64,000 bases of DNA from a virus. The DNA lies in IMG/VR virus record IMGVR_UViG_3300005918_000012; one strand, given 5' to 3'. Made by a program: the position numbers and the translations under genes. The first letter of the stretch is position 1, and each line of letters starts with the position of its first letter. This document shows positions 12,715-64,000 of the stretch, in pieces. The notes beneath the pieces were generated by a model, which searched no databases, was not told the origin of the DNA, and worked only from the letters and a program-made list of their open reading frames with translations.

Positions 12715-14070
12715 ATGGCTGATATAATTTCATTAGAAGATGCCACAGCAGATGGTGGAAGTCCCTCGGCAGGGGAAGACCGAACAATGCTTATGGCTCA
12801 AGCGGTATCTAACCCACCAGCTCCCGTAGCATTCCAGTATTTGAATGTTGGTCCTGAGATGGCTATTGAAATGGAAAGCATCTCAACCGATCAGGTTGAC
12901 AATTCTGATAGTATGTTGAGGAATCTATCTCCTTTTGTAATCCAAGTTGAACCTCCTGCTTCTTTCCAAGCATATGCTTCTAACCCAGCATATGCCAACG
13001 GCCCTAGCATTGGGTTGTATGACAGAGCAAACGGTACTTCTAAGAGCTATCAGAAGGCCAGAGATGCTCTTTTTGAGAGTGATCCTTTGAATGGGGCTGC
13101 AAGTACACAGACTACAATGAATCCTGAAGATTATCTGGTATCAATCAGTGAGACAGAAACCTTAGCGGTGGGTGAACAGGTGGGTTCTCCTGACCCAAAT
13201 GCCGATTTACCTGTACAAGGGCAATCTTTATTACCGGATTTGCTAACTGTGATGGATATGAAGCTCCAAATTGCTAACATTATGAAGATTCCCCCGTTGG
13301 TGTTGCTGATTAATCCAACATCGTTCCAGATACAGTACACGAAAATCCAGCAATATCAGGATCGTAGTCGGTACGGGTACATTCTTCATACGTGGGGTGA
13401 GGATCAAGCTAAGATTTCATTTACGGCCAAGTGCGGAGCTTTCATATCCGGTGGCCGTGGGGTTCACGTTGCCAGTCGGAACGATTCAAAAGCTTGGCAG
13501 AATATGCAGAACCTGATGAGGTTTTACAAAAACAATGGTTACATCTATGATACTATAGGTAAATCCAATGCCCATTTACACGTAGGGGCTTTATCCATTC
13601 GATACGATGGGTTCATTTACTACGGCTCTATGGAATCATTTGCCTTTGAATTCAATGAGGACAATGAGCTTGGTGGTATGGAATTTAACATTGAGTTTAC
13701 AGCCAACGGGATTATGGATACAACTTCTGATACTAATATGGTATATCCGATGCGGTCACCTTTACCGAGCATTCTTGATTCCCGATATATGGGTTTAGGT
13801 AACCAGAATCGGGCAGGAGAATTTGCTCTTGGAGAACATGGGATAAAGACTCAAGGGAGAGAAGTGAGTCCGGGAGATGCTTTTGAAACTCTGGTTCCTC
13901 AAAAAGCTGCTAATCTTATAGATCCCACACAGGGGACTGTTATCTCTAATTCAACACAGGTTGGGCAACCTATCGGGGATCAGGCTATTCAAGAACCGTT
14001 AATAGGGGGTATTGCTGGGGAACTGAATCAAGTTGACCCAGTTAATGTTGCCCCGTTTGGAAGTGGCTAA
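12715..14070 (+). CDS. Tail tube initiator / baseplate-tube junction protein, paralogue B, with N- and C-terminal extensions
   Basis: LLINPTSFQIQYTKI...HTWGE...FYKNNGYIYD..G...YDGFIYYGSMESFAFE aligns by eye with the 12021 protein. Confidence 0.65.
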   Translation: MADIISLEDATADGGSPSAGEDRTMLMAQAVSNPPAPVAFQYLNVGPEMAIEMESISTDQVDNSDSMLRNLSPFVIQVEPPASFQAYASNPAYANGPSIGLYDRANGTSKSYQKARDALFESDPLNGAASTQTTMNPEDYLVSISETETLAVGEQVGSPDPNADLPVQGQSLLPDLLTVMDMKLQIANIMKIPPLVLLINPTSFQIQYTKIQQYQDRSRYGYILHTWGEDQAKISFTAKCGAFISGGRGVHVASRNDSKAWQNMQNLMRFYKNNGYIYDTIGKSNAHLHVGALSIRYDGFIYYGSMESFAFEFNEDNELGGMEFNIEFTANGIMDTTSDTNMVYPMRSPLPSILDSRYMGLGNQNRAGEFALGEHGIKTQGREVSPGDAFETLVPQKAANLIDPTQGTVISNSTQVGQPIGDQAIQEPLIGGIAGELNQVDPVNVAPFGSG

Positions 14071-17000
14071 TGAGTTTGGGATCAAGACCATATGTAGGAA
14101 CATGGCGGTTAAACCGTCAGCAAGTTGTTCAACACACCCCAGATTGCTTGGTGTATCTGAATGGGGACACAGCCTTGCCAGGTTGTGCTCGTTGTAATAG
14201 CAGAATTGATATCCAAGAGTTCATTACAGAGGTGTCTGTGGACGCAGGAACGGACCCTGGAGCTACTTCAGCTTCATTTACCTTGTCAGTACCTGTTCAC
14301 CATCATGATTCGTTTGCAAAGGACGCTCAGTTCATTTTACGACCTGGGTTAGAAGTTCATATTTATCAACGTGGGTATTTCCCGGTCGTAGGTTTATATC
14401 CTGAAACCGATGAGAAGATGCCAGCTTATCCGTACTATCATGTTTTCCACGGGGTTATTATTCAAGTAGGTGGTTCTTACAGTTCTGGTGTACAAACCTA
14501 CTCCGTTCAATGTGGCTCGATGTTACATTTCTGGCAGTTCCAGCAAGTTAGTACAAATGCAGCAATATATGCAAAAGCTCCAGATGAGTCCCATAACAAA
14601 TCATCCCCAGTAGGCCATAACTACACAGGTCAGCACCCTTACGAAATCATTTGGAATATCCATAACGATTTTGTCAGTGCTGCTGCTGGTATAGGGTTTG
14701 CTTTATCCAACCAGACAAATGTAAATGCTATGTTTGGAAACAAGTCTCTTTACTCTTATACTGCTAAGTATTGGGAGGAGCGGTTTCGGACAAGTACTAT
14801 CCGGCTGAGAATGCACGGGGCAACAGGGACGTTATTTAATGCTGAACAAGCTGCATTCATGGGGAGAGCTTCTAGTAAAGAACTTCTGAGGTTAGTTAAA
14901 AGCCGATTTAACCCAAGTAATACAGGGTCGGAATCGGGGCCAGCCCCATTCAGCGGTGCTAAAATCAGAGGCTCTTGGGCACCAGAAGTTTTAGATTCCT
15001 TTCTGTGGTTGGATAGATCTTCTTCTGGGAGAAAAAATATTGGTTTGAATATCGTAGAGATGCAAGCTTTCATTACTGATATTGGGATGTTTGGTCAATA
15101 CAATGAATTTGAATCCACTTATGAGAGTAAATTGGATATTGCCAATAAAATTTGTGATGTTGCAGGGTTTGAGTTTTATCAGGATGTGGATGGAGATTTT
15201 GTTTTCAAACCACCATTTTATAATATGGACACATCAAGCTCACGGACTTATTGTATTGAAGATATTGATATCATTAGCATTAACTTTGACGAGAAAGAAC
15301 CCGAAGTCACCTACATGACAGCCAAAGGTGGCCAATATAAGAATACTGTTGGTGCTGGTGGTGAGAATGAGTGGGGTGTTCGTGGTCAGTATGTGGATTA
15401 CCGTCTGGTAGCTAAGTACGGATGGCGTCCCGGAGAGTTTGAGACTGCTTACATCAACGATAGAGAGGCTATGCAACATGCTGCTGCTAACCAGTTAGAT
15501 ATTATGAATGCTGGTAGTCAGTCGGCTTCTTTAACTATCCCCCTACGCCCTGAAATCCGACCGGGGTTTCCTGTGTATATCCGATACTTGGATTGTTTCT
15601 ATTATTGCACCTCAATGTCCCACAGTTTTGTAGTCGGTGGGCAATGCACGACAACTTTACAGCTCAGTGCTAAGAGAGCTAAGTTCTTTGCTCCTGGTGA
15701 TGTAGATAAACCCAAGGCAGGGATTGATGCTATTCGTTTAGATAACCCAACGATGCCACCCAGACCTCTCCAAGTAGAAAACAACATGGGCTACCCAACC
15801 CTGATGGGGTTCCCGAATACTGTTATGTCCCTTGATCCTAATAGGATTGATCCTCGGTTATTATTAATGGGCGGTGGGGTTTTTAACATGAAGAATCCTA
15901 AGATGATGCAGGGATTTCTTCAGATGGCTTTAGATATGAGGGTTATCAATTATGCAGGTGGGGCTGATTCGGGTGATTATTTTGAAATGCAGATGGGAGA
16001 GAATAAGACAGTTGTATTCCATTACGAGATGGATGAAGCCAGTCAGCCTGCAGGTACTCATCCTTCAGCAATAAACCCTACGAATGCTTTTGATTTAGAT
16101 GCTGGTGTGAGTGAGTACAAAAAAATGGTAGTGAAGCGTAATGCTACTCAAGCAACACTGAAAATATCCATTGCTGCCGGACAGAAAAATGTGGATGAGT
16201 TAGCCCATAAGTATACGGCCATCCCAAGTGATAATAAAAATGCAGCCAAGAAAAAAGCAGCCTTAAAGAAAGTGCAAGAAGCTGAGAAAGCAGTAGGAGG
16301 GCTTCTGGATAGATTGGATGTTAACAGTGCAGCATTCCAAAAAGAATTGGATGGGTTGGATAGTAAAAATGCTGATGCTGTGAAAATTATTTATAAGATT
16401 GTTCAGGAATTAACGGATTCTAAAGATGGTTCTCGTGAAGATATAAATAGTACCAGTTTCATTTTAGGACTTCTTGCAGATAAGAAATCGACTCTGACAA
16501 ATGCTTCTATTCCCGGATCTTACCGATATTATTCGAGTTCTCATCCAACTCCTGCTCATCAAGGGATGTCGGGACTTACGATTAACTTTACTGATGATGA
16601 GGGTGATATAACACAACTTAAAGCTTCGTTCTTAAACCCTAGACTTTCAGGGGAAGGTTTCCTTAAAGAGGGTCCGCAATCTCCTTTAAATAAGGCTATT
16701 GATTCAAAGTTTGGGCAAATCCCGGTAGTTCAAGGAATTAAGATTTTAGATGGGAATCCTAATAAAAAAGGTGGGGTTATCGTCCCTACTTCTGAGATCA
16801 GGGCTTTGGCTTTCTCTCCTGTGCATTATATAGTTCCGAGAAAAAAGACTAAAACTAAAGAAGCTCCGAAGGCAATGAGTTTATCAACCAACTTCTATGC
16901 TAATTTAACAGCCTCCGCCGTGTCTGCTGTATCAGGAACAGGGGCTACTACAACATTACAGGGTGCTTTTAGTACTTGGATTGCTGAGTTAAATTCTCAA

Positions 17001-18140
17001 TTTACAACTATTGCTCAGGATGTATATTCAGAAGTTGCTCTCCCTTTGACCGTCACGTTGGTCCCAGTGAAGATCAAAGAAAGCATAATGAGCCTTTCAG
17101 ATACCCCTGATAATTTTAAATTGAGTGGTAGTAGTGTCGAATTTAGTACAACCCGTACAGCAACTGGGGCTGCCACTAGTAGTAGTGTTGAACCAATTAA
17201 ACAGTTTAGCAGCAGTGAAGGCATGTCTGTAGGTCAGTTCTGGAATGTAGTTGCTAAAAACCTTGTGAAAGCTTTAAAACATCAGCTTGATCTTAGTGTT
17301 GATTCTTGGAAAAAGAAGGTTAAGGAAAATGTACCTGTTGTAAATGTGAGTGAGGGTGACGTAGATATTTATCAAAATGCTGTAACAAAGTTTTTTACGG
17401 TGTTCCAAGGCGTCTATGGTCAAAGTAGTTCTGGTAAGACTCAAAAAACGAGTGCTAGTTTAACTAAAGATGTAAACACTTCCTGTCCTGTTTTCCCTGT
17501 CTCTGATGCCCGTGGGTATGAAGTATTCGGGGCTTTTCAGTACGGGAGAGGGGTTGATATCAATCCAAATGGGGTGTTCTCTAAACTAGCTTTAAGTGGG
17601 CCATTAGAGAAATTAGACGTTGCAACTAAGAATGCATTTATGAGTACGGCTTTTGCTTCGGAGGGGACTCTGGAGGGTAAAGAAACACAGGCTCTCGTAG
17701 ATAGTTTAAATAAAGCAAATTTAGGAGATTCTTCCTTAACAAGTATTCTTGCTAAAGCCCCAGTTTTAGAGGGTGATGCAGCCAAGACTCAGCTATTAGC
17801 TAATGACCTTCGGAACTGGTACATAAATAGAAGAGATGCTGTAACTAAGACTCAGGTACAGTTAACAAATGCTGCTTACACTTTGGCTGATCTTAAACCG
17901 GCTTCTCTCAGTATTTGTAATTGTAAAATGGCTGAGGCCAGTATCATTCTGGAAAGTGCTCAAGAGCAAGAGTTTGTTCCTGTAGTCGAAGGATTCATGG
18001 AGTTGCAGGGAGAAGATCCTGTAACAGCTGTTCAAGTTAAAGGTGCAGCAGCTGCTGGGGCAAACTGGACATTACATCAGCAGGCTTTACGTGGAGAAGT
18101 TTTGGATAAAAACTCTAACACAGCGAAGGACAAAATATAA
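14070..18140 (+). CDS. Baseplate hub (T4 gp27 / VgrG N-terminal-like) with ~800-aa C-terminal extension
   Basis: SASFTLS...EVHIY...VFHGVI; FEFYQDVDGDFVFKPPFYN; KYGWR; SLTIPLRPEIRPGFPVYI...SMSHSF...TTTLQLS. Directly upstream of the spike. Confidence 0.78.
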   Translation: MSLGSRPYVGTWRLNRQQVVQHTPDCLVYLNGDTALPGCARCNSRIDIQEFITEVSVDAGTDPGATSASFTLSVPVHHHDSFAKDAQFILRPGLEVHIYQRGYFPVVGLYPETDEKMPAYPYYHVFHGVIIQVGGSYSSGVQTYSVQCGSMLHFWQFQQVSTNAAIYAKAPDESHNKSSPVGHNYTGQHPYEIIWNIHNDFVSAAAGIGFALSNQTNVNAMFGNKSLYSYTAKYWEERFRTSTIRLRMHGATGTLFNAEQAAFMGRASSKELLRLVKSRFNPSNTGSESGPAPFSGAKIRGSWAPEVLDSFLWLDRSSSGRKNIGLNIVEMQAFITDIGMFGQYNEFESTYESKLDIANKICDVAGFEFYQDVDGDFVFKPPFYNMDTSSSRTYCIEDIDIISINFDEKEPEVTYMTAKGGQYKNTVGAGGENEWGVRGQYVDYRLVAKYGWRPGEFETAYINDREAMQHAAANQLDIMNAGSQSASLTIPLRPEIRPGFPVYIRYLDCFYYCTSMSHSFVVGGQCTTTLQLSAKRAKFFAPGDVDKPKAGIDAIRLDNPTMPPRPLQVENNMGYPTLMGFPNTVMSLDPNRIDPRLLLMGGGVFNMKNPKMMQGFLQMALDMRVINYAGGADSGDYFEMQMGENKTVVFHYEMDEASQPAGTHPSAINPTNAFDLDAGVSEYKKMVVKRNATQATLKISIAAGQKNVDELAHKYTAIPSDNKNAAKKKAALKKVQEAEKAVGGLLDRLDVNSAAFQKELDGLDSKNADAVKIIYKIVQELTDSKDGSREDINSTSFILGLLADKKSTLTNASIPGSYRYYSSSHPTPAHQGMSGLTINFTDDEGDITQLKASFLNPRLSGEGFLKEGPQSPLNKAIDSKFGQIPVVQGIKILDGNPNKKGGVIVPTSEIRALAFSPVHYIVPRKKTKTKEAPKAMSLSTNFYANLTASAVSAVSGTGATTTLQGAFSTWIAELNSQFTTIAQDVYSEVALPLTVTLVPVKIKESIMSLSDTPDNFKLSGSSVEFSTTRTATGAATSSSVEPIKQFSSSEGMSVGQFWNVVAKNLVKALKHQLDLSVDSWKKKVKENVPVVNVSEGDVDIYQNAVTKFFTVFQGVYGQSSSGKTQKTSASLTKDVNTSCPVFPVSDARGYEVFGAFQYGRGVDINPNGVFSKLALSGPLEKLDVATKNAFMSTAFASEGTLEGKETQALVDSLNKANLGDSSLTSILAKAPVLEGDAAKTQLLANDLRNWYINRRDAVTKTQVQLTNAAYTLADLKPASLSICNCKMAEASIILESAQEQEFVPVVEGFMELQGEDPVTAVQVKGAAAAGANWTLHQQALRGEVLDKNSNTAKDKI

Positions 18141-20578
18141 TGAGTAGTCCTATCAACCCAACATCTAATAATTCCGGGTATACAGGTGTCCCTTGGGGTT
18201 CTTTGATGGCTTCGGTAGCCAGACAAAAGAAACGTAAAAAAGATATGACCCCTGATAACAACTGGGGTCTGGGTACTGCTAAGGTTATCAATATCAACTA
18301 TGTTGAGATGTATGCCACTCTAAGAACTCTAACGGGAGCTTCACAGATTTTTGATAGAGTCCCCGTCCCTCTCACATTCCCTGGTATCGGAGCTCGTCAT
18401 TTTTTTGGAGCTATGCCTGAGATTGGTGATCGTTGTGTTATCGGGTGGATGGCTTCTGAGAGTATGTCCGTGGATAGTACTCGGACACCGGTTATCTTAT
18501 CTTGGTTACCTCAAGGCGTATGGACAGGGCAGGATTGGGTAACGGTCTCAGATTTCGGTCCTGATGAATATGACATCAATAACCCGAAAGATATGTCGAG
18601 TTTGCGGGGGGTTTACTCCCAAACTCGACACAAATTACGACATATCCAACCTGGTAATATCGTGGCTTCGTCTTCTCAAGGCTCTGATATGGTTTTGGAT
18701 GAGAGTGTGACTCTGGCCAATCGTCGAGGAAACGAGCTTATATTACGAGACCAAGATCAAGCTCTTGTGGCCAGAAGCCTTCAACAATTTCATGCTATGG
18801 CTGGGGCACGTATTTATGCCGGTATGGTCCAACGTGATGCTCGACTCCTGCCTGCAATGTGTGTATCTGACGGATACGAATGGGATAGTAAAACCCAAGC
18901 TTATGCAGGAGAAGCTATATCAGACAGCAATCTTCCTCCTGATCCTCAAGCAGGAGAAGGTTTTTATACTCCTTCTAAAATATTTCAAAGACGACAAACA
19001 ACCTTTGAAGATGGCAGCATAGCAGGTCGTCCTTTCCCAATACCATCTTATCTTGACCCCTACTCTTTCTTACAGAGGGGTGGGATCATTGATCATAGTG
19101 GTTACGTAGTAGAGGATAGTCATATCCCTGTAGTCAGTGATGCAGTATATGGCGGAAAACCTATCTTTAGAGTGGCTAATCAAGGACTTGAGAATGCCAC
19201 GACTCAACCTAACACCCCTACTTTGACAGAATACAGGATCGAAGTTGCTCACACATCAGATGGCCGTCTGCCCGTAACCGAACAGACGGACTTGTTTGAT
19301 GCTGAACGACTCTTGGACAGTACTCCTGAAACAGGGGGGTCGTCTGCAAACCAACCATTTATTGAATGGGTTATAGGTTCTGTAGTTGGTAATGACCCTT
19401 ATACTTCTAAAGGTCAATTAAGTTATGGCCTGCCCTTGGTCCCAATCATTTTTGACGGTGATGTCCCTGCTCCCAGATTGGAAGCAGCTAAAATCATGGC
19501 TACGAATGACGGCGGTACTTCAACTCCGATGAAAGATCAGGCAGCTATGTTGTTCAGGATGGCTCCCCCAGAGGGAGGTGCTGAAACATTCTGGTCTGTC
19601 AACAAACAAGGGCAATACCGAGGGTTCGTTGGTGGTGACGTTAAAAAGGATTCCGTCCACTTATACACTCAGGGGAATATGAAGATTGGATCTGGTGGTC
19701 GAGTAGACATCTATGCTTTAGGTGGTGTTCATTACCATGCTCTGGGCAAAGCCAGCTTGGAACTGAAATCTCCTGAAGGAGCAGTTACGATTTACGGTGG
19801 TGGTCCTATTAAGACTGCTGAAACCACAGTAGAACGTGCTTCTGGTACGGGTGGTGGAGAAGGTGATGTACCATCCGTAGACATCGGAGCTAAAACTAAC
19901 ATTCGAATACAGGCTGAGAAAAAGATTCTTCTGAAAAGTAACAACCACGAGACTCAGGCTACCAATGTAGCAATCACTGGCCATGAGAAAGTTGCTATCA
20001 ATGGTACGAAAACTATCAGTGAGACAACAGAGAATTATCAATTAACGGTCAGCTCACAGGCTTCTGAATCATACAGCGGACCAAAGTATTTAATGCCTAC
20101 TAATTTCCCACTCCACGAACGGGTTTATACGAGCCAATACCCTGGTTTCACAGGTGAAAAAGTCAAATACACTATGTGTGATCGTGAAGAAGAATTCAAG
20201 ATTCTCGGGAGTCACTCCACGAAGATGCAAATTGGAGATATGACGTATGAGACTAATTTAGGGAAGTGGTCGGCAAAGGCTCTGGCAAACTCTCTTGAAG
20301 TGGATTCCGCAGCAGGGATTACGGGTGAGGCCAAATTAGGAAATGTATCTTTCAAAGCATTAGTGGGCACAGCTACCCTGTCAGGGATGGCCTCGGCTAC
20401 CTTGGAAGCAAAAGCTGGTATAGCAACAGTTAGTGGTGGGACAGGTGTTACCTTGAGAGCTCCTGTTACGGGACCAGATCAGGGTCCAATTATCTGTGCA
20501 GGTTCTTTAGAACCTTTTACTAATCTGCCTTATACTACTTGGGGTATGGGTGCAAAAATGCATAATGTGACGGCTTAA
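18140..20578 (+). CDS. Central baseplate spike (gp5/gpV/VgrG C-terminal-like): OB fold + beta-strand repeats
   Basis: AKVININY...VPLTFPGIGARHFFGAMPEIGDRCVIGW is a gp5/gpV OB-fold signature; the C-terminal third is short alternating beta-strand repeats. Confidence 0.8.
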   Translation: MSSPINPTSNNSGYTGVPWGSLMASVARQKKRKKDMTPDNNWGLGTAKVININYVEMYATLRTLTGASQIFDRVPVPLTFPGIGARHFFGAMPEIGDRCVIGWMASESMSVDSTRTPVILSWLPQGVWTGQDWVTVSDFGPDEYDINNPKDMSSLRGVYSQTRHKLRHIQPGNIVASSSQGSDMVLDESVTLANRRGNELILRDQDQALVARSLQQFHAMAGARIYAGMVQRDARLLPAMCVSDGYEWDSKTQAYAGEAISDSNLPPDPQAGEGFYTPSKIFQRRQTTFEDGSIAGRPFPIPSYLDPYSFLQRGGIIDHSGYVVEDSHIPVVSDAVYGGKPIFRVANQGLENATTQPNTPTLTEYRIEVAHTSDGRLPVTEQTDLFDAERLLDSTPETGGSSANQPFIEWVIGSVVGNDPYTSKGQLSYGLPLVPIIFDGDVPAPRLEAAKIMATNDGGTSTPMKDQAAMLFRMAPPEGGAETFWSVNKQGQYRGFVGGDVKKDSVHLYTQGNMKIGSGGRVDIYALGGVHYHALGKASLELKSPEGAVTIYGGGPIKTAETTVERASGTGGGEGDVPSVDIGAKTNIRIQAEKKILLKSNNHETQATNVAITGHEKVAINGTKTISETTENYQLTVSSQASESYSGPKYLMPTNFPLHERVYTSQYPGFTGEKVKYTMCDREEEFKILGSHSTKMQIGDMTYETNLGKWSAKALANSLEVDSAAGITGEAKLGNVSFKALVGTATLSGMASATLEAKAGIATVSGGTGVTLRAPVTGPDQGPIICAGSLEPFTNLPYTTWGMGAKMHNVTA

Positions 20579-20580
20579 TT

Positions 20581-21183
20581 ATGGCTATTAACTCAGGAAT
20601 TATTACAGCAGCTTTGATCTCAAACCGAATGTCGGGAGGACTCCCGATGAGCGGGCCTGCCTTTGACAAGTTGGCTTTGGGTATCGGAATAGCTGTTCAA
20701 ACTTGGGGTGTTGGGAATCAATCAAATTTAGGTTTAATTGGAGCCACAACGGGTACAGTAGGAGCAGGGATTATAAATCCTGTCACAACTAAGTTAGTTG
20801 TACCTCCGGCAATGCCGGTTGTGTTACTTGCTTTGATAGGAGCTGGGATGGTTGGACCTTTAACTCAGCCTTTGGCTGCTATAGTAGCACTGGGGATTTC
20901 TCAGTCTTTTACAATATCAGCTCAGTATGCTGGTCCTTCGGCAGGAGTAGGTTTGGGAGCAGACGTTTCAAAAATCACGACCTCTAACGGGTCTACTTTA
21001 ATTACGGCTTTAATGAATGCCCTGACGGCAACTTCTGGTTCAGGTTCTGGTTTGTCAATTATGGCAACGGGTCTTGGAAATGGGATTGCTAATTTACTTA
21101 TGCTTGGAGCAGGTATAGGTTCTGTAAATGGACCCCCAGCCCCCGCACCTGGTGCAGGAACTTCAAAAAGTATGGTGGTATAG
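20581..21183 (+). CDS. Gly/Ala-rich spike-adjacent protein made of three internal repeats
   Basis: Three ~60-74-aa units (helix, G.G, helix LA.G.G.GI, Gly-rich hairpin GAG...K); almost no charged residues; directly after the spike. Confidence 0.6.
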   Translation: MAINSGIITAALISNRMSGGLPMSGPAFDKLALGIGIAVQTWGVGNQSNLGLIGATTGTVGAGIINPVTTKLVVPPAMPVVLLALIGAGMVGPLTQPLAAIVALGISQSFTISAQYAGPSAGVGLGADVSKITTSNGSTLITALMNALTATSGSGSGLSIMATGLGNGIANLLMLGAGIGSVNGPPAPAPGAGTSKSMVV

Positions 21184-47646: not shown

Positions 47647-47732
47647 ATGAGAGAGGATTAACAAGATCTGCAAAAGGTCGTTTTTTTGTGAAAATGTGGG
47701 ATGCTAAAACAGGGGAAATATTAGTAGAGTGG
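47561..47732 (+). repeat. 44-bp direct repeat, 42/44 identical, 128 nt apart
   Basis: 47561-47604 vs 47689-47732; both differences are synonymous (GCC/GCT, AAG/AAA). Confidence 0.95.
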
Positions 47733-55795: not shown

Positions 55796-58700
55796 ATGGC
55801 ATTTGATCCAAATAAAGTGAATTTAGGGGCTGACCTTCTAACGAATCCGACAGCTTCAGATAGAGACCCTTGGCAGGAAGCGTTTAAGCGTTTCTCTGCT
55901 GTTCCTGACTCCAAGACTTTACGGGCATCCGAAGCTCTGTCTGGGATGACAGGCTCGTGGGCTGCTCAATATAAATTTGGTCCTACAGTATCTGATAGCT
56001 CCACACAACCTGAACCGACAACACCTTCTAATTTCAGTATGAAGTTGAATAAACTTGGGCGTCCTGGTATGCCTGAGATCGATTTCGTTCCATATAGTCA
56101 CAACACAAACCGATTCGGTAATAAAGGTGGGGCACTTCTTGGTGAACCTATTTCGTTCTCTGTAGTCGGCCCGACTGCTAAAGTTGGTGGTGAGAAAATG
56201 GTATGGCAGTGGGTAGTTGATATAACTACTGTGCCTGGCAGCACTATCGTTCGTTTGGATGATATTGTTGTGGATACCTCAATAGCTACTTGGTCAACGA
56301 CAGCTCTAACTTTAGATATATCGGACTATTATAATATCCAGGCTGCTGATTTTGGTGAAGATGCACGATTTGATGGTGGTTTGTACTTAATGGTGAGTGA
56401 GACCGGAAAAACCGAGGAAATAAACCCTGCTGCTCCTGTTACGGGTGGTATTGGTGACGGGGCTATCATTGATGATGGTATCACGACCAGAGTACCGATT
56501 ACGGCATTAACTTCAAGCAGTAAAACGGAATTGTTCCGTGTTACAGGTTTGTATGAAAATGCTGGTAATGTTCTTGGGTTTATTCTGGATACCAGCAAGT
56601 ACTTGGAAAGTTACTTCTCTATACAAGGTAACCCAGCAGAACCAGATATTATTCGTCATATTACATTGGTAGAACCGGCTGCTACTCGTTTGGTAGCTAT
56701 TCCTGACTCTGGGGATGGGCGTGGACAAGAACAAGTGTTTGCATTTACACCCCCACGTCAAGCATTAACGTCAGAACACCAACCATTAGCTAATGAATGG
56801 AATCCTTCTGCTTCACCATGGCCTGCTGAATATCCTTGGGGTGTTGAAGCAAGTGATGGGCTTTCGTTATTTTATTATGATTACGGTCCTCAGTTGCCTG
56901 TTTTAAAACCTTATGCTGAATGGTCTGATGTTTATTTGACAAACAGCACAGTATGGGCTGCTGCTAATGGGATCTTAGGTTCTATGGATATTATCTGGTC
57001 AGCCGATGCTACAGATGGTGAGCCTGTTCCTGAAGTAGGGGATGTTCTGAAAATACATTCCATTAAAACGAATGATAGTACTGTATGGGTTAATACCGAT
57101 AGCCGTTCTGTAAAATGGGGTAGTCTTCTTGGATTCTTTGAAGTTATAGTAAATACACAAACAGCCTCAACCAGTTACACCTTAACTTTGAAACGGTATG
57201 CCGAAGTAGAGCCTGAAACTGGAAACTCTATGTGGGGAACCAGCATACAATTTAGTGCTGATGTCACTACTTTTGTTCCTCAGTTAAAATGTTCTATCCA
57301 TAAGCCTGTTAAAGAACTTTGGAACAGTCCTTGGTTTGATGCAGACTCATTAGATTCTACACGTATAACGAACCTTATTGACCCCAGATGGGTCGAACGG
57401 GCAGGATACACACCAACGGTATCAACTGACCCTACAGTCAGAGATATGGGAGTAAGTCCTTACCGTCCTGACAGAGCTATTTTTGATACAGCTTCTTCCG
57501 GGATCGGGGCTGCCGGAACTAATGCCAATCCAGGAAACCTTCAAAACTTAGGTTTCCGAGTGGTATTATTCCCAGGTAAAATAAAAACAATCCCTACTGC
57601 CCTTGGTGGCACAGAAGATATTATTGCTCCTGATTGGGACCGCCCGATCACTTCAAATGAGTTGGTAATTGATCCAACGGTTACTGAAAAACAGTATGTT
57701 GAAGTGGACTATGCAAACGGTTTCGTCCGTTTGTCACATCCCCCACAAGCTGTGGATGTTTCGGATGCCGGTGCTGGTGATTTAGCTCCTGCTGACGATA
57801 TCTTTACGCTCGGTACGGATGATAATCCTCGTGGTGAGCAAGTATTGTTTGCAGCCTGTGTCCCTTACACTCAGGATATCGGACAAATCGGTACTGGCCC
57901 TCGTGTGACCTCGAACCCTTCGTCTGTGTCTGATACAGATGCTTGTGCCGGAAGTGCTAACAGTGCTGGCTCAGGTGAGTTTTATGATGTGTATGGTGAC
58001 AGAGTAGCATTTGATGTTGACACGATTTCAGAACAAGTCTTGAATTGTATAAATGTTGTCGGTACTTCAGATGAACAACTGACTCTGACTGGGTTAGTTG
58101 CTGACCAGCTTCCTCCGACAGGATTCTTTGAAATATTCCAAAGTGGTGACCCTGTTCTCACAACGGGCAGCACCCGTGGTTCTTTGTTCAGTTACTACGG
58201 AATTGAAGAAACTGGTGGTGATACTATTCTCCACGGTGTTCACGGTGGTTTAGAATCCGGTGTTGATATTGTAACTATTAATTCTGCTGCTCCAGCTCAG
58301 ATTATTCTTCGACGGGAATTGTTTACACCGAATGACCGTTACGGGACAGCAACAGTTCGATACCAAGATGATGTATCTTATGGTGATGCTAAACGAGCCG
58401 GAGTCTTCCGGTTCACAGGAGTTGAAACTGTAGTAAATCTTGATGGTTCTATAACTATTCAGATTCAGGATAGTGCTGCAGATGCTTACGACAACTTAGG
58501 TGATTTGTTTTCATCTTGGGTGTTAGATGGTGGTGAGTTAACTGGCCATAGAGTACCTACCAATCACGACTACATTAGCTATACCGAAACAACCGTTATT
58601 TATCAAGGACATAGATTGGTTATTCCTGCAGGGGAGTTTTGGTTTGCAGGGATGTCGGGGGATGGTTATTTGTACATTGATGGGTCTGATTGTTCTGTTA

Positions 58701-61432
58701 ACCAGTCAGACAATATTCCATTACCAGACCCTGAGTTCATTCTTTTAGGGGCTTACACTCAAAATGTTTTTGCAGCACCCTTTACATTTGATTTAAGACA
58801 TCCTTTGTTGGATATTGACCGTCGATTGGATATCTTCGTAGGTCTTCGAAATGATGGGTCTGGCGTTCCTTTGGCAGGACCTCATTTTTCAACTTTGACT
58901 GATGCCGTTACTTATGCTAATGAGATTCAGAACCCATTGGTAGGAGAACCTGATTTCAGAGTCAGAATCCGAGTAGTTGGTTACACCGATGAACCTGAAG
59001 CAGGGTTACCTATTATGATAGGTACGGATGGGTTGATGATTGAATCTGACCCTCTACTTGAAGATGCTATCCAAACTTCTATCACTTGGGATGCTGATGA
59101 TAAATGCCTGATTGATTTGAATGGTCACGATGACTTAACTTTTGATGGGTTATCGTGTCACAATACCAGTACAGACTTATCTCAAACAGAGCCTTTGAGG
59201 GCATTGTTTACCAATACTGGAGGTTCTGTAGAACGGTTGACTGTTAATAATTGCCGATTGGTTGGGTCACAAGGTTTCATGGTGATGACTGCTAATCCAA
59301 TTGAAGATAGCCATATAACAAACAATTATGGTGAAGAATTATTGGATTTTGGTATCTATCTGACTAATGAGTCTGATGATCCTATTACAATGACTATTAC
59401 AGAAGTTACTACTATCAATGTTGATGCTGGTGAAACTATAGATATTCTTTATGGTGGGGAGTCTCTTACAGTAACGGATTTAGGTGGGACTATTACTTAT
59501 AATGTCGGGACTGATACTTGTACAGTGGCAAATGACCCTGGTGCTGGGGATTCTTTTATTATTAAACCTAATCAGACTGCTCGTATAATAGCTAATGGGG
59601 GTGGTTCCATTGTTCGAGGTGCCGATACTATTGCATTTGAGGAAAACACTGTTGGTAGTATTTTTCACTCAGTAGCATCTTCAGTTGTTATTCAAATGGC
59701 TGGTAGGTTACTAGAACGGACAGTTATTCAGGATAACACATTTATTCAAGCGGGTATAATTGGAAACATGGCCGACAATGACCACACATTAGCAGTGGCA
59801 GTAACCGCTACTATAACAACAACAGCCGGATTTGATTTAAGAATTGGTGATGCTTCCAAGAGTATAACTATTCCTGCAGGTACCTCTTCTTGGGTTATTG
59901 ATAATGATGGTACAGATGCTAAAGTTTGGGAGCCACCCGGTCCAAGTCTCCAGGTCGTTTTCCCAGCAGATATGGACACTGCTGCATTTTATCCTGTACC
60001 AGGGTCAACAGGCACAGCTACTATTAGTATCCCAGGACAGGAAGATATTGTTATGACTCCTGATACATGGGGTTATATGTATTATTCAACGGGGGTTGCC
60101 CCAACAAGAGAATTACGTATTGTACACGGCCCCAACGGAGTAGCAACAGCTGGTGGTATTGTAGCATACACAGGTCTTCTTGTAACTCCTTATTGGGATC
60201 TTTTGGTTGGTAGTGTTATGGTAAACATGCATAATAAAATCAACCATAATATAATTAAAGGATTCCATGTTGGTATTTTTGCAAATGTTATCTGGAATTC
60301 TGATGTGGAAAACAATTATATTTCGGATACCAAAAATGTAGGTATTTATTTAGGTGCTTATGCTGGATACCACAACACCAATAATAATGTGTTAGAAAAT
60401 GTATTTACGGTTGACCAATTAGATATCGAAATATTCCAATGGCCTGGTCAATTTTCTGTGACGCCAGTCTTACCTGTTCCAACAGGGTTCGGGGAGGCTG
60501 AAAAACATGGATTAGTTGCTAGTGGTCTTTATAGTGAGATCAACTCAAACGTAATCTCAACAGCAGCAGCTTTATCAACTGGTGAGGGGACTCCACCATC
60601 TTATCCCATTTTAGATATTTGGATGTTCGGGGGTTGGCTTGATGCCAAATTAAATACTCTGAGTTGGTGTCTTGGTGGTGAAGGGTATGCTCTGGGAGTA
60701 GAAGATAATACCATCTTGAGTTATGGTGGTACTGGATATGCTTTTGAGGCAGGTGTGGTAATTTCAGCAGCTTACAGTACAATCAGGGGAAATAGTTGTA
60801 CTTATGATATTATATTAAATGAGTCATTAGGTTCTGTTATTGCTCATAATTTTGCAAGGGATGTTTACACAGCAAATCCTAACTTAGCAGTGGCCGTTGG
60901 CAGTTCTTATACAAACCTTACAGGGAATCGGGTTAAGGATATCTATTTAAACGGGCCATTAGGGGATGAGTCCACCAATTGTACGGTGGATGCAAATACA
61001 ACTTCTGGATCTATTTTTAATGGTGACCCTGGATTAGGTCCTAATGGGACACGTATTGTTAATAATATGGTAGGTACTAATATTACATCTTTTACAAATG
61101 GTACAAATGCTAATATTCTTGGGAATACTGTATTGGGTACCATTGATGTTAATGCAGATGGTTGTATAGTGAGTAATAATTATGCAACTACCATTGATGT
61201 TAATGCTGTTGCAGGTCCTCCTGATGTTAGAAAAGTAATTTTGATGGGGAATAATGCTCAGGTGATTACAGGGGAAACTGCTGCTGCTACACCTAACAAT
61301 GTTGTGGCTATAGGAAACACTGTATCTGTTGCTGATTTAGGTGCTGGTGCTGGCCTGAACTTTTTTGGGCATGATCCAACAGGAGTTCATAATTCAGTTA
61401 ATTTTGAAGAAGCACACAATCGAACTTGGTAA
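55796..61432 (+). CDS. Tailspike/receptor-binding-like protein with C-terminal right-handed parallel beta-helix (1878 aa)
   Basis: HFSTLTDAV cap, then Asn-ladder coils (ITNNYG, IQDNTF, INHNII, VENNYISDTKNVGIYL, IRGNSC, ILGNTV, VSNNYA, AIGNTV); TIDVNA encoded twice by an 18-bp repeat (61138-61155, 61189-61206). Confidence 0.72.
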   Translation: MAFDPNKVNLGADLLTNPTASDRDPWQEAFKRFSAVPDSKTLRASEALSGMTGSWAAQYKFGPTVSDSSTQPEPTTPSNFSMKLNKLGRPGMPEIDFVPYSHNTNRFGNKGGALLGEPISFSVVGPTAKVGGEKMVWQWVVDITTVPGSTIVRLDDIVVDTSIATWSTTALTLDISDYYNIQAADFGEDARFDGGLYLMVSETGKTEEINPAAPVTGGIGDGAIIDDGITTRVPITALTSSSKTELFRVTGLYENAGNVLGFILDTSKYLESYFSIQGNPAEPDIIRHITLVEPAATRLVAIPDSGDGRGQEQVFAFTPPRQALTSEHQPLANEWNPSASPWPAEYPWGVEASDGLSLFYYDYGPQLPVLKPYAEWSDVYLTNSTVWAAANGILGSMDIIWSADATDGEPVPEVGDVLKIHSIKTNDSTVWVNTDSRSVKWGSLLGFFEVIVNTQTASTSYTLTLKRYAEVEPETGNSMWGTSIQFSADVTTFVPQLKCSIHKPVKELWNSPWFDADSLDSTRITNLIDPRWVERAGYTPTVSTDPTVRDMGVSPYRPDRAIFDTASSGIGAAGTNANPGNLQNLGFRVVLFPGKIKTIPTALGGTEDIIAPDWDRPITSNELVIDPTVTEKQYVEVDYANGFVRLSHPPQAVDVSDAGAGDLAPADDIFTLGTDDNPRGEQVLFAACVPYTQDIGQIGTGPRVTSNPSSVSDTDACAGSANSAGSGEFYDVYGDRVAFDVDTISEQVLNCINVVGTSDEQLTLTGLVADQLPPTGFFEIFQSGDPVLTTGSTRGSLFSYYGIEETGGDTILHGVHGGLESGVDIVTINSAAPAQIILRRELFTPNDRYGTATVRYQDDVSYGDAKRAGVFRFTGVETVVNLDGSITIQIQDSAADAYDNLGDLFSSWVLDGGELTGHRVPTNHDYISYTETTVIYQGHRLVIPAGEFWFAGMSGDGYLYIDGSDCSVNQSDNIPLPDPEFILLGAYTQNVFAAPFTFDLRHPLLDIDRRLDIFVGLRNDGSGVPLAGPHFSTLTDAVTYANEIQNPLVGEPDFRVRIRVVGYTDEPEAGLPIMIGTDGLMIESDPLLEDAIQTSITWDADDKCLIDLNGHDDLTFDGLSCHNTSTDLSQTEPLRALFTNTGGSVERLTVNNCRLVGSQGFMVMTANPIEDSHITNNYGEELLDFGIYLTNESDDPITMTITEVTTINVDAGETIDILYGGESLTVTDLGGTITYNVGTDTCTVANDPGAGDSFIIKPNQTARIIANGGGSIVRGADTIAFEENTVGSIFHSVASSVVIQMAGRLLERTVIQDNTFIQAGIIGNMADNDHTLAVAVTATITTTAGFDLRIGDASKSITIPAGTSSWVIDNDGTDAKVWEPPGPSLQVVFPADMDTAAFYPVPGSTGTATISIPGQEDIVMTPDTWGYMYYSTGVAPTRELRIVHGPNGVATAGGIVAYTGLLVTPYWDLLVGSVMVNMHNKINHNIIKGFHVGIFANVIWNSDVENNYISDTKNVGIYLGAYAGYHNTNNNVLENVFTVDQLDIEIFQWPGQFSVTPVLPVPTGFGEAEKHGLVASGLYSEINSNVISTAAALSTGEGTPPSYPILDIWMFGGWLDAKLNTLSWCLGGEGYALGVEDNTILSYGGTGYAFEAGVVISAAYSTIRGNSCTYDIILNESLGSVIAHNFARDVYTANPNLAVAVGSSYTNLTGNRVKDIYLNGPLGDESTNCTVDANTTSGSIFNGDPGLGPNGTRIVNNMVGTNITSFTNGTNANILGNTVLGTIDVNADGCIVSNNYATTIDVNAVAGPPDVRKVILMGNNAQVITGETAAATPNNVVAIGNTVSVADLGAGAGLNFFGHDPTGVHNSVNFEEAHNRTW

Positions 61433-61442: not shown

Positions 61443-62270
61443 ATGAGAGTACTTGTAGATCAAAAAGAATTGATGGTAGGTGGCCCAATAGCAGTTCCAT
61501 CTATCACTCAGATTGGTAAAACTCCCACACCCGAAGACGGTTTGGCCATCAATGGCCGTTTTGTTCTTCCTGTTGTGGATGGGGTTGAGTTTCAGGTTGA
61601 GTCTGATTCCTACGTTCTTCCCGTTGACGGAGAAGACATCAGCAGTCAGGCTTTCGGTTACCTGTTAGCTACTTTCCCGATGTACGGGCATATTTTCTTT
61701 AATCCTTTCCTGACTTATGAAGATATTGAAAATGATGGTGGTATTGATTACACAAAAACTTTCAAGGATGACAGTAGCACACCTCCAGACCCTCCGGTAT
61801 ATTATAGCTCTCGGTTGCAGACCGGCAGAGGTATCTCAGAGGGTTCTGATGCGGGACTTTTCCCAACCCATACGGCTTTGTTGCCGATTAATAATACTTT
61901 AGGTGCTGGTTCAGATCGTCCAGGCCTTATGGTAACAAGAGAAATTGATCTGACCCCTTATACAGGGTTAGCTGGGACTGATGAGTTTTGTCTTTATTGG
62001 AAACTATTTGATTTTGAAGTCAGTGAGGATCATGCTGGAGATTACGGTGTTGTGGGTGATAATACTCCTGCAATCCGTCGAATTTTCGAGACAGACCCAG
62101 AACCGGATGACTTAACTGTCTATATTTCTCCTGATAATGGAGTACATTGGTGTGAGGCAGGGTTTTTAGAGCCCGTTGCTTTCACCTTGAAAACTACAAG
62201 CATTCGTCTGGCTTTCCTGAATAGGGGAGACAGCAAAATCCACATTGCCAACTTTGCGGCAATGTTCTAG
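61443..62270 (+). CDS. Hypothetical tail-associated protein (275 aa)
   Basis: SD GAGG; acidic, beta-rich; C-terminal VYISPDNGVHW Asp-box-like motif. Confidence 0.6.
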   Translation: MRVLVDQKELMVGGPIAVPSITQIGKTPTPEDGLAINGRFVLPVVDGVEFQVESDSYVLPVDGEDISSQAFGYLLATFPMYGHIFFNPFLTYEDIENDGGIDYTKTFKDDSSTPPDPPVYYSSRLQTGRGISEGSDAGLFPTHTALLPINNTLGAGSDRPGLMVTREIDLTPYTGLAGTDEFCLYWKLFDFEVSEDHAGDYGVVGDNTPAIRRIFETDPEPDDLTVYISPDNGVHWCEAGFLEPVAFTLKTTSIRLAFLNRGDSKIHIANFAAMF

Positions 62271-62284: not shown

Positions 62285-64000
62285 ATGAGTAATTACGGAT
62301 CAGATATATCTAGGACACTTGATGCTGTAAACAGACAGTTCTCTAACATCCTGTTTAGAAAAGGGAAGCCCCCATTAGATGCTGAGTTCAATCTTCAAGA
62401 TGACATATGTTCTGAGGAGATGAGAGATGTTGTCCGTGCAATGATGCCTTCAGGCTTCGTTATGGACCCGACACGCTCTCTGGAAGATTTCCAATTCGAT
62501 CCTACATGGTCGAATATGTTCGTTCTGGGCAACCCTATGAAACGAACTATTGGTGCAACTACCACAATCGAACCGAACCCTGTCATCTGGGCTAATGTCA
62601 ATGGTTGGATGATTCCTGTAACAGGGACAGATATTGATGCTGCTGCCACTTGGATAACAGACCAAGGTGCAGCTACAAATATTGTTCGTTTGACTCCACC
62701 TCCTGAATCTGATGCTCGAATTGATTTCGTATTCTTGGAAGCTTGGCAATCCCGGGTAGATGCTAACCCAGCAACCGTTAACAAACCTGCTGCCGATAAG
62801 CTCTGGAAATATGGTAATACCAAGTTCGGTGGGACTAATCTCAGTGACGATCTTGAAGATCCTACTATTGGTTATCAGACTACAGCTCGTGTGCAGATTC
62901 AGTACAGAATCCGAGTATACAGCTCAGGTGCGGACCTTACCAATTACCCTGACGGATTAGGATATCCTAATATTCATGGCCAAGGAGCCGAAGATAGTCC
63001 TGTTTCAGGATACCCCTTCGAGAATATGCGTCAAGAACTGGGAGACCCTTCTCTGTGGAGAGCTGGAAGCCCAACTTCGACCGATATGGGAACCATTGAC
63101 GGTTACACCTATGCTATTCCAATCTGTGCTATTTTCCGACGGAACTCACGGTCATATGTGGCTGTGGCTGCCGGTGGAACTCCGAATCATAACGGTAGCT
63201 TTAACCGTATGCCTGGAACTGGCTTGCTGCCTGATCCGTTAGTTGGTGCAAAACCTCTGACAACGGCAATAGTTGATGGTGTTCTGACTCATGATGGTAT
63301 TCTTGCTTCTGATGGTTTCAGTTCTGCTAGTTTGGTTATCCCTACGACCCCTGCTGAGATTCAAAGACCTTACGGGAACTCAGTTACGTTTGATATTGCT
63401 GTGGATGCTCTGGACGGTTCTGGATTAGAAGACACTCAACACAGTGGACTCTATGTTAAGATTGATGATGAGATTCTCAGTGTCTCTGCTGTAGATACTG
63501 TTGCTGGGACTATCACAATCCCTGTAAGTGGTCGGGGAAGATTCGGTTCTGCCGTTACAGGTCATAATAAAGACTCTGTTATATCTTTCTTCAATACTCG
63601 ACCCGATGGTTTATATGCCGATCAGATTGCTGATAGTGATCTGTTGGATCTCCGTCATGGTATCAATGCTAATGACTGGGACTATGGCCGTTTGCTAGAA
63701 CGTGGGGTCACTGACCTCTTGACTGGTAAAATGAAAACAACTTGGAAACGAGAATCTGCTGGTGGCACTCAAGGTCCTGTTATACATGAAGTGGATGCTT
63801 TGTATGCTAATGATGCCTTACACCCAGCCGGTACTGACCCAGTAGATGGACCAGATGGCGTTCGGACGGTGTGGTCAGATGCAGCTGCTGTTCAACCAAA
63901 CGTCACTATCCTATTAGATAACGGAGCTCCTATAGTTCCGGGTCCTCAAACAGTTGATAGTTTCAATGCCTCTGTAGAGTGGGACGTTGCTCCTGGATTT
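62285..64000 (+). CDS. Baseplate-anchored fibre/appendage protein B, 3'-truncated by the window edge (572 codons visible)
   Basis: Hand translation of several segments in one frame: MSNYGSDISRTLDAVNRQFSNILFRKGKPPLDAEFNLQD...RIDFVFLEAW...TTARVQIQYRIR...DGYTYAIPICAIFRRN...RPDGLYADQIADSDLLDLR...FNASVEWDVAPGF; SD AAGGA. Absent from the ORF track, presumably for lack of a stop. Confidence 0.88.
   Translation, partial: MSNYGSDISRTLDAVNRQFSNILFRKGKPPLDAEFNLQDDICSEEMRDVVRAMMPSGFVMDPTRSLEDFQFDPTWSNMFVLGNPMKRTIGATTTIEPNPVIWANVNGWMIPVTGTDIDAAATWITDQGAATNIVRLTPPPESDARIDFVFLEAWQSRVDANPATVNKPAADKLWKYGNTKFGGTNLSDDLEDPTIGYQTTARVQIQYRIRVYSSGADLTNYPDGLGYPNIHGQGAEDSPVSGYPFENMRQELGDPSLWRAGSPTSTDMGTIDGYTYAIPICAIFRRNSRSYVAVAAGGTPNHNGSFNRMPGTGLLPDPLVGAKPLTTAIVDGVLTHDGILASDGFSSASLVIPTTPAEIQRPYGNSVTFDIAVDALDGSGLEDTQHSGLYVKIDDEILSVSAVDTVAGTITIPVSGRGRFGSAVTGHNKDSVISFFNTRPDGLYADQIADSDLLDLRHGINANDWDYGRLLERGVTDLLTGKMKTTWKRESAGGTQGPVIHEVDALYANDALHPAGTDPVDGPDGVRTVWSDAAAVQPNVTILLDNGAPIVPGPQTVDSFNASVEWDVAPGF

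Follow-up and report, generated by a model that had tools for sequence, protein, structure and literature searches.

A greatly enlarged baseplate operon of an uncultured huge myophage, with a giant protein and partners that no solved phage explains

Almost everything known about huge phages comes from sequence, and few jumbo-phage baseplates have been solved. What, then, is encoded by a run of tail genes that spends more than 16,000 amino acids on the tip of a tail? The window analysed here (64,000 nucleotides, IMG/VR virus record IMGVR_UViG_3300005918_000012) raises this question, and the original prediction had put the sum at about 16,500 aa from the hub gene to the window edge. We counted 15 open reading frames (ORFs) from position 14070 to the edge, which gave a close sum of 16,412 aa, and 18,118 aa from the hub to the end of the operon when the last gene was completed from the source contig. 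All the ORFs named in that prediction are uninterrupted, nearly abutting frames on the plus strand, and the gene calls of the source contigs include the two small ORFs at 32796-33032 (78 aa) and 47449-47646 (65 aa). Identical proteins recur on several independently assembled contigs, the longest of 402,136 bp, which rules out an assembly artefact. Orthologous sets of about 18,100-18,500 aa were found in three relatives (G001-G003) and of at least 13,000 aa in a fourth (G004, complete, 312 kb); these similar totals indicate that the large module is not due to chance. In unique residues the tail-tip module is 3-4 times as large as in phage G (4,578 aa in the genes that could be assigned, against 18,118 aa here) or in phage 812 (5,954 aa in all).

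The genes from the tail tube to the tip of the spike are the following.

5233-6084, plus strand: tail tube protein, 283 aa (family profile against phage G gp179/gp180, E 1.6e-8/1.5e-10; 40% to Tunturi_5 gp329)
6302-8713, plus strand: two probable tail assembly chaperones, 414 and 387 aa (function inferred; they lie between tube and tape measure, an order kept in relatives)
8718-12017, plus strand: tape measure protein, 1099 aa (identified from its location and the character of its sequence)
12021-14070, plus strand: two tube-initiator/spacer proteins, 228 and 451 aa (mutual paralogues, E 1e-11)
14070-18140, plus strand: baseplate hub, 1356 aa (Tunturi_5 gp254, E 8e-50; phage G gp185, E 9e-10)
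18140-20578, plus strand: central spike, 812 aa (position; hhalign with Tunturi_5 gp253, probability 85, E 6.5e-6)
20581-21183, plus strand: predicted monomeric non-PAAR spike tip, 200 aa (three Gly/Ala-rich repeats of about 65 aa)

Homologues of the myophage core were detected for the tube, the tube initiators, the hub, the spike (the weakest of these assignments), gp25, J/gp6 and I/gp7. The initiator/spacer pair matches phage G gp184, Tunturi_5 gp255/256 and, weakly, 812 gp115. The conservation pattern of the hub separates a conserved core (residues about 1-590) from a variable C-terminal extension of about 770 aa with a coiled-coil-like stretch, and 2 of 15 members of its family match the PHROG 'baseplate hub'. 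The N-terminus of the spike gave a weak match to the 812 spike (E 0.003). Across the window proteins, Pfam and PHROG scans returned Baseplate_J, gp25-like, phrog_5417 and weak tail matches and nothing else.

The wedge genes follow further downstream.

36837-38015, plus strand: gp25-like sheath initiator, 392 aa (phage G gp187, E 1.6e-25; Tunturi_5 gp242, E 6e-30; 812 sheath initiator, E 1.8e-5; PHROG baseplate)
38020-41547, plus strand: Baseplate J/gp6-like wedge protein, 1175 aa (Pfam Baseplate_J, E 7e-11; phage G gp188, E 4e-51; Tunturi_5 gp241, E 3e-93; 812 wedge, E 4e-6)
41547-47393, plus strand: gpI/gp7-like wedge protein fused to an appendage, 1948 aa (N-terminus: phage G gp189, E 9e-26)

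The gp25-, J-, gpI- and hub-like labels given earlier are therefore backed by profile matches, including Pfam Baseplate_J and PHROG baseplate. In solved baseplates, J and gpI proteins form 2:1 wedges. The gp25-like protein carries an N-terminal addition of about 180 aa, while in the gpI-like protein only residues 1 to about 460 are wedge; near nt 42930 they are joined to an appendage of about 1490 aa. This appendage is a separate gene in most relatives (split in 29, fused in 9; the tree requires 5 changes or more), and the fused form was found on 5 contigs. The 1948-aa 'gpI' is thus a recurrent fusion of a wedge gene of about 460 codons with most of the gene downstream, and it pinpoints a physical junction that is open to modelling. 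Splitting of the wedge gene by an intron or mobile element is disfavoured: the intervening genes (915 and 1052 aa) show no sign of a nuclease or reverse transcriptase in their sequence and are absent from G003, which is still split.

These data identify the module as the contractile-tail baseplate/adsorption operon of a huge myophage of about 400 kb. The original prediction had suggested a search for a capsid to separate a phage from a tailocin or extracellular contractile injection system (eCIS), and a capsid-less machine might be read from the window, which holds no capsid gene, and from Pfam Terminase_6N, which had no match in five related records. However, the source contig measures 402 kb and its syntenic relatives 300-650 kb; the two examined whole, G003 (536 kb, 68 tRNAs) and G004 (with direct terminal repeats), encode a prohead protease and a major capsid protein 46-49% identical to that of Tunturi_5. 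A further member of the clade, LR745208 (GWB1_PHAGE_COMPLETE_CIR-CU-CL_55_23, 485 kb), is a curated complete phage genome (Al-Shayeb 2020, PMC7162821). These findings largely exclude an eCIS or tailocin, and we give such a reading next to no credence. The clade is large, uncultured and distantly related to phage G and Tunturi_5. The moraphages, described as T4/Lak-related (PMC12619734), are taken, on that description, as a different lineage.

Is the size in itself exceptional? The original prediction had measured the conserved proteins against their P2-type counterparts. They are enlarged indeed, but P2 is the wrong yardstick because the baseplates of phiKZ and Goslar already reach about 100 nm; the cores of phage G and Tunturi_5 are also enlarged already, and part of the length seen here is gene fusion. 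The mismatch drawn between the baseplate and the tape measure is no anomaly either, since baseplate size is independent of tail length, as the huge baseplates of phiKZ (107 nm) and Goslar (about 100 nm) illustrate. The tape measure protein has no profile or database match and its orthologues span 778-1499 aa (median 1142). From its length we predict a tail of about 165 nm; the 160 nm estimated before fits the related isolate Tunturi_5, whose 1106-aa tape measure goes with a 167-nm contractile tail (PMC11924767), whereas phage G has a 2893-aa tape measure and a 450-nm tail. Large jumbo-phage baseplates and the accretion of domains on tail proteins are already described, and no principle is overturned by this locus.

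The remaining genes of the window extend from the wedge to its edge.

47449-47646, plus strand: ORF of 65 aa (stretch of about 14 residues in common with the start of 47634-48224)
47634-48224, plus strand: T4 gp8-like arm-segment protein, 196 aa (33% to phage G gp190, E 4e-11)
48260-51880, plus strand: tripod-like large protein A, 1206 aa (paralogue of 62285, E 1e-17; phage G gp211, Tunturi_5 gp247, E 1e-36)
51893-55729, plus strand: conserved acidic beta-rich protein, 1278 aa (orthologues in G001-G004 and LR745208)
55796-61432, plus strand: protein of 1878 aa (conserved N-terminal 1200 aa or so; variable C-terminus with beta-helix-like Asn-rich repeats)
61443-62270, plus strand: protein of 275 aa, immediately ahead of tripod-like B in all the relatives compared (G001-G004 and the rearranged LR745208)
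62285-64000, plus strand: tripod-like large protein B, 2135 aa as completed from the source contig, of which the first 572 lie in the window (phage G gp211, E 5e-47; Tunturi_5 gp247, E 1e-58)

The order of J, gpI, gp8-like and large protein equals that of phage 812. In the Herelleviridae (Staphylococcus phage 812, Listeria A511; PMC13433997), the wedge is likewise followed by a long gp7-like arm scaffold, a gp8-like arm segment and a large tripod. Homology to 812 is detectable for the wedge and the sheath initiator. The links to its tripod and arm segment are weak: in tripod-like B a 33-aa N-terminal motif alone aligns with the 812 tripod (E 0.0017 versus 0.3-0.76 for controls), and the gp8-like protein gave a weak hhalign match to the 812 arm segment (E 0.023 versus 0.25-0.92). 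Hhalign found no alignment between the appendage and 812 gp117, the arm scaffold, and 812 differs further by its enzymatic hub, spike and weld. Pfam gave no match in the window proteins to the gp8-like arm segment PF25691, DUF4815 or BW3TFN, and PDB profile searches with the hub, the spike, the tripod-like N-terminus, the gp8-like protein and the spike tip returned nothing significant. The appendage is a probable arm scaffold and the 1278-aa protein, which has no database match, a probable peripheral or attachment part. The 1878-aa protein, without a Pfam match, is a candidate receptor-binding protein; its orthologues in G002 and G003 align only over residues 1 to about 1200.

Phage G (Donellivirus, Bacillus/Lysinibacillus, JN638751; PMC12484599, PMC8570332) has a homologous tube, initiator and hub, and keeps gp25 (gp187), J (gp188), gpI with a C-terminal appendage (gp189) and a gp8-like protein (gp190) in the same order, plus gp211; in the region compared one protein of the gp211 type was found, against two here. 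Its gp188 and gp189 were found in virions, while gp190, annotated as T4 gp8-like, was not detected in virion proteomics (PMC12484599); PMC12484599 and PMC8570332 contain no description of the baseplate structure. Tunturi_5 (Tunturiibacter phage, PP885688; PMC11924767), the closest isolate and one imaged by stain electron microscopy only, shares the tube (40%), hub, spike, gp25, a 1239-aa J, gp8-like and gp211-like proteins and a 1204-aa sheath; its gpI is only 344 aa long.

At the tip of the spike, the 200-aa protein is predicted to form a pseudo-threefold, non-PAAR cap. Repeats 1 and 3 align with each other (hhalign E 2.9e-5), and no PAAR match was found in Pfam, PHROG or PDB, nor a PAAR motif. 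The C-terminus of the spike was modelled as a trimer with pLDDT 91-92, and its modelled complex with the tip scored 0.78 as compared with 0.02 for the best of 3 controls; the score mark applied was attained in 58 of 80 solved pairs but in 2 of 110 mismatched ones, figures that are no more than approximate here. The runs shared at least 95% of the contacts with partner pLDDT of at least 93. In the model, patches 21-31, 89-98 and 152-161 of the tip would grip residues 790-801 of the three spike chains.

Between the spike tip and the wedge lie four genes, in which the original prediction had recognised no counterpart.

21184-32799, plus strand: giant protein, 3871 aa, 424 kDa, a probable extra baseplate scaffold
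32796-33032, plus strand: helical/coiled-coil ORF, 78 aa
33032-35917, plus strand: partner protein, 961 aa (99 homologues; AF2 pLDDT 83)
35927-36784, plus strand: helical/coiled-coil partner, 285 aa (20-80% identity in 22 relatives)

None has a counterpart in solved or cultured phages. Searched against 50,697 GenBank phages, the giant gave a single match, to an uncultured phage. Neither the giant, its partners nor the spike tip has a homologue detectable by profile comparison in phage G, and profile searches and hhalign detected no giant, 961-aa or 285-aa homologue in Tunturi_5, where RCC1-annotated proteins occupy the giant's slot; hhalign did not bear out Tunturi_5 gp243 and gp244 as equivalents of the 285- and 961-aa proteins. 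Phage 812 also lacks a giant. An argument against a scaffold role is that the baseplates of phage G, Tunturi_5 and 812 work although neither giant nor partners could be detected in these phages. Alignments of the 961-aa protein and of three segments of the giant gave nothing significant in PDB profile searches (a weak gasdermin match, E 0.18, was treated as chance), Foldseek searches of the PDB with the giant-segment and 961-aa models returned generic Ig/FN3 strings only, and atlas searches no named relative. This absence of relatives is not evidence of new folds. The giant and its 78-, 961- and 285-aa partners are unexplained by any solved phage.

In the giant, small beta domains follow one another like beads, and helical cores lie in the region of residues 1740-1820 and at the C-terminal end; eight domain profiles revealed no internal copies, which lends no support to a tandem repeat of one module. 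Residues 1296-2300 (1005 of 3871), folded with AF2, gave pLDDT 86 and pTM 0.56. The best fold matches, to a K1 lyase tailspike (Z 10.1, rmsd 2.3, 79 aa) and the JBD30 baseplate (Z 8.4, rmsd 2.6, 83 aa), concern single small domains near the level that common arrangements reach. Where named, BFVD matches are mostly phage tail or virion proteins; a small barrel module is common to the giant and the wedge appendage, and the giant's pI of 4.3 is that of the J and gpI proteins. Such beads on a string, the low overall pTM and a resemblance (Z about 6) to T7-like fibre anchors and to docking domains of TSP4 would also suit a reading in which the giant and the other large proteins are long flexible fibres or a branched fibre network (phiKp24, CBA120-like) on a plate of ordinary size, or sheath appendages, with no rigid tier; the sheath likewise carries added domains (1771 aa). 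However, conservation of the giant extends over its whole length (30-45% in about 90 homologues), unlike that of host-range fibres, which swap their tips, its sequence contains neither collagen repeats nor a long trimeric coiled coil, and its gene is linked to those of the spike tip and helical partners rather than to the downstream fibre genes. We consider the fibre explanation rather unlikely.

The linkage extends beyond the window. The slot next to the spike tip, partners and wedge genes is kept in G001-G003 and in distant contigs with versions of 2.2-2.3 kaa, and in the rearranged G004 the giant travels with the spike tip and both partners; distant relatives have a gene of 52-78 aa in the slot of the 78-aa ORF, a correspondence of position only. 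LR745208, unannotated in GenBank, has most of the module, including a giant of 3642 aa, rearranged into several blocks; the accessible part of PMC7162821 holds no discussion of this tail module, and a literature search on the accession found no paper naming it. The giant lies apart from the wedge genes in LR745208 and in a relative of 648 kb, which speaks against the scaffold reading. This mobility of the giant module is one point in favour of a role for the giant and the 961- and 285-aa proteins inside the particle or in ejection, as a trans-envelope conduit or membrane anchor, or else as assembly scaffolds that mature virions lack. Another is the 961-aa model, in which N- and C-terminal helical hairpins pack together beside an FN3-like domain (163-460, with inserts; VIA FN3 Z about 8.7, a generic level) and a helical domain; the hairpins are amphipathic and resemble WXG100-like bundles, again at a generic Z of about 8. 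The 285-aa partner has no database match. Whereas the ejection proteins known so far consist mainly of helices, what was folded of the giant is mostly beta with tail-type domains, and Pfam and PHROG scans and the domain profiles revealed no polymerase motif or enzyme family, so that an ejected or transient role appears improbable.

We favour, as the reasonably probable reading, a known wedge-arm baseplate to which an extra scaffold tier has been added, and we infer that the giant is present in virions. Homology shows a normal myophage core, made up of the tube with a pair of initiator rings, the hub and spike, gp25, and the wedge proteins J and gpI; the gp8-like protein and two large gp211-like paralogues come after it. 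One 200-aa chain with three repeats would cap the spike trimer in place of PAAR. By analogy with 812, A511, phiKZ and Goslar, the gpI-fused appendage may form an arm scaffold that extends outward under a coat of gp8-like dimers; the arm would carry both tripod-like proteins together with the attachment proteins of 1278 and 1878 aa, and attachment of these to the cell would rearrange the wedges and fire the sheath. Least certain is the place of the giant, which with its 78-, 961- and 285-aa partners may build an additional six-fold tier around or below the spike. Six giant chains, an assumed copy number, would amount to about 2.5 MDa; their helical cores would oligomerise and the strings of beta domains would stiffen the plate and provide sites for docking or adhesion, a role filled by many copies of small proteins in phiKZ and Goslar.

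These two jumbo myophages (Chimalliviridae; PMC13250141, PMC13742148) have multi-tier baseplates of about 100-107 nm with gp8-like spokes, a monomeric tip on the spike and, surrounding the spike, a lower tier; the module described here would work in a similar way. Their periphery, however, is made of many copies of smaller proteins (e.g. gp27, 898 aa) and not of a 3.9-kaa chain; tblastn of 50,697 phages and PDB profile searches gave no match to their tail proteins, and a remote fold likeness is possible. A third tier or cage of single 2.2-4.1-kaa chains and two helical partners around a spike with a new pseudo-threefold cap may be an undescribed virion architecture and a way of making a very large baseplate independent of that of phiKZ, a proposal that we hold tentatively, at slightly less than even chances. 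Of the unusually massive baseplate and undescribed architecture put forward originally, the oversized module and the unmatched giant stand, whereas the giants' place in the virion is presumed.

The adsorption machine of this clade is not readable from T4, 812 or phiKZ, and the clade is widespread: we found 94 homologues of the giant, most of them full-length (median 3701 aa), and, in a separate count, about 367 giant-protein clusters, with contigs of up to 648 kb. If the favoured reading is true, a contractile tail of ordinary length would be fitted with a multi-megadalton tip made of very long single chains, and the locus would add a non-PAAR spike-tip family and marker genes for proteomics and tomography.

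The 65-aa ORF appears, from its sequence, to duplicate the start of the gene that follows it. Just upstream of the window on the source contig, a 1771-aa gene was assigned to the sheath because it agrees in size and position with the 1770-aa gene of G003, which is homologous to the Tunturi_5 sheath (E 2e-55); as compared with the 579-aa sheath of phage G, this sheath carries added domains.

An ORF map of the window recovered all the genes named in the original prediction, and the 15 ORFs between 14070 (hub) and the window edge total 16,412 aa. On the source contigs, two genes of 78 and 65 aa are additionally called and the last gene is complete at 2135 aa, giving 18,118 aa from hub to operon end. 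Letter-identical proteins occur on several independent assemblies (longest, 402,136 bp), which confirms both the long frames and the 1948-aa gene. The large outer proteins (window 21184-64000) are acidic (pI 4.3-4.6); the pI of hub, spike, gp25 and tape measure is close to neutral. The main genes are:

5233-6084, + strand, tube
8718-12017, + strand, tape measure (1099 aa)
14070-18140, + strand, hub
18140-20578, + strand, spike
20581-21183, + strand, 200-aa gene
21184-32799, + strand, 3871-aa giant
32796-33032, 33032-35917 and 35927-36784, + strand, its 78-, 961- and 285-aa partners
36837-38015, + strand, gp25-like
38020-41547, + strand, J
41547-47393, + strand, 1948-aa gpI-like
47634-48224, + strand, gp8-like
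48260-51880 and from 62285, + strand, tripod-like

With the tube protein as query, 38 IMG/VR loci were retrieved. The whole operon is colinear between the window and the related genomes G001, G002 and G003 (536 kb), at about 27-84% identity. A fourth, G004 (312 kb, direct terminal repeats), holds nearly the full gene set in three blocks, with a giant of 3007 aa. The check for capsid and terminase that had been proposed was run on the relatives: the capsid protein of G003 and G004 shares 46-49% identity with its counterpart in the isolate Tunturi_5, and a Pfam terminase search gave no match. Both genomes also encode a prohead protease and a 1600-1770-aa sheath, and a 1771-aa gene (L192:1928-7243) occupies the sheath position directly upstream of the window. 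With capsid, prohead protease and sheath, these 312-536-kb genomes speak against an eCIS: the operon is that of a huge myophage. The putative 1771-aa sheath is about three times the phage G sheath, and in the N-terminal third of its G003 orthologue a beta domain weakly resembles DUF2460.

Family profiles matched, in the cultured phage G, gp179/180 (tube), gp184 (initiators), gp185 (hub), gp187 (gp25), gp188 (J), gp189 (gpI with appendage), gp190 and gp211. They also matched the equivalent proteins of Tunturi_5 and, in phage 812, the sheath initiator and the wedge. For gp188-190 of phage G the annotation reads P2 gpJ/I-like and T4 gp8-like, and gp188/189 were detected in virions (PMC12484599). 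The window shares with 812 the gene order J, long gpI, gp8-like, large protein, which in 812 are wedge, arm scaffold, arm segments and tripods (PMC13433997). Compared directly, the 812 arm segment (gp8-like, E 0.023) and tripod (a 33-aa motif, E 0.0017) gave weak matches that still exceed controls, so that the arm-and-tripod reading of the outer genes is an analogy. A 65-aa ORF (47449-47646) duplicates about 14 residues of the gp8-like gene start, and relatives have a single 215-225-aa gene, which suggests a recent local duplication or split. In the hub family (14070-18140), the cysteines C39/C42 and C1283/C1285 are nearly invariant and may bind metal, and residues around 640-830 look coiled-coil-like. 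In a close relative, with a giant of 83% identity, a further gene of 270 aa (L103:1949-2761) lies between second initiator and hub.

The 1948-aa gene joins a wedge of about 460 aa to most of another gene, which is separate in 29 of the 38 relatives. On the tree, the starred branches require at least 5 switches between the fused and split states, and this repeated fusion or fission suggests that wedge and appendage proteins adjoin in the particle. Between the two genes, G001 and G002 have an inserted 915- or 1052-aa gene (G002, L058:6839-9997), absent from the window, a candidate swappable receptor-binding gene. The inserts have a common N-terminus of about 270 aa (weak PKD-like match) and unrelated C-termini.

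The 200-aa protein encoded after the spike has three Gly/Ala-rich repeats; a PAAR match was sought in it and none was found. Modeled with three spike C-termini, it scored 0.78 (best control, 0.02). Of 80 solved and 110 mismatched pairs, 58 and 2, respectively, reach the mark used; for this job these counts give a rough guide only, and a pass may also reflect an undetected resemblance to some solved complex. Runs agreed in at least 95% of contacts, with a partner pLDDT of at least 93, and three evenly spaced patches grip spike residues 790-801 of the three chains. The model supports a predicted monomeric, pseudo-threefold spike cap.

Homologues of the giant number 94 (median 3701 aa), with conservation along the whole length. 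Its profile matched 367 clusters, including a 2.0-2.9-kaa group; in two members that were checked, the genes run giant, small gene, ~710 aa, ~205 aa, gp25, J, gpI. Among 50,697 GenBank phages it was found only in LR745208 (3642 aa), reported as a curated, complete 485-kb phage genome (Al-Shayeb 2020, PMC7162821). There the module is split into blocks, with the giant and 961-aa genes inverted, and the 200 kb examined (185-385 kb) gave no spike homologue. In the rearranged G004, spike-tip gene, giant and both partners stay together as one block, which links the module with the spike end of the baseplate, though in other genomes these genes are apart. An AlphaFold2 model of giant residues 1296-2300 (pLDDT 86, pTM 0.56) shows small beta domains in a chain around a helical core. 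Its best fold matches are to single domains, from a K1 lyase tailspike (Z 10.1, rmsd 2.3, 79 aa), from the baseplate of JBD30 (Z 8.4) and from further tail parts; TSP4 docking and T7-like fibre-anchor domains reach Z about 6. These modest scores point to tail hardware, with no family named. The modeled 961-aa partner comprises packed terminal helical hairpins, an FN3-like domain and a helical domain. That the module consists of internal or transient proteins seems very unlikely.

The predicted tail of ~160 nm agrees with the tape measures of Tunturi_5 (1106 aa, 167 nm; PMC11924767) and phage G (2893 aa, 450 nm), which make an estimate of ~165 nm sound. The supposed mismatch between baseplate and tape measure is no anomaly, since in phiKZ a 107-nm baseplate sits on a tail of 215 nm and the Goslar baseplate is ~100 nm (PMC13250141, PMC13742148). 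The cores are indeed inflated relative to P2, but cultured relatives already have large J (619-1239 aa), gp25 (253-301 aa), hub (840-883 aa) and gpI (up to 1109 aa), and domain accretion is described for jumbo-phage sheaths (PMC9230969). As for hypertrophy, the 18,118 unique residues exceed those of phage G (4,578, assignable genes only), 812 (5,954) and Tunturi_5 (about 10,000, plus 4,462 in annotated fibre genes); part of this excess is gene fusion. We consider that the operon shares its ancestry with phage G and Tunturi_5 and works like the arm-bearing baseplates of 812, A511, phiKZ and Goslar; none of these phages matches its gene set. A flexible fibre network formed by the large proteins is an unlikely alternative reading of this mass. 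Probably, a known baseplate core would bear an additional, putative scaffold tier.

Three genes occupy the sheath-tube gap (window 521-5070): one on the reverse strand (507 aa) that encodes an integrase SAM-like domain, one for a MerR regulator and one for a VIT-vWA protein of 836 aa; G003 has none of them, G002 the VIT-vWA protein alone and G001 all three. G003 carries 68 tRNA genes; one of them has a stop anticodon (TTA), and for another the anticodon is called as four bases. The same genome has a second capsid-like fragment, of 214 aa, at about 323 kb.
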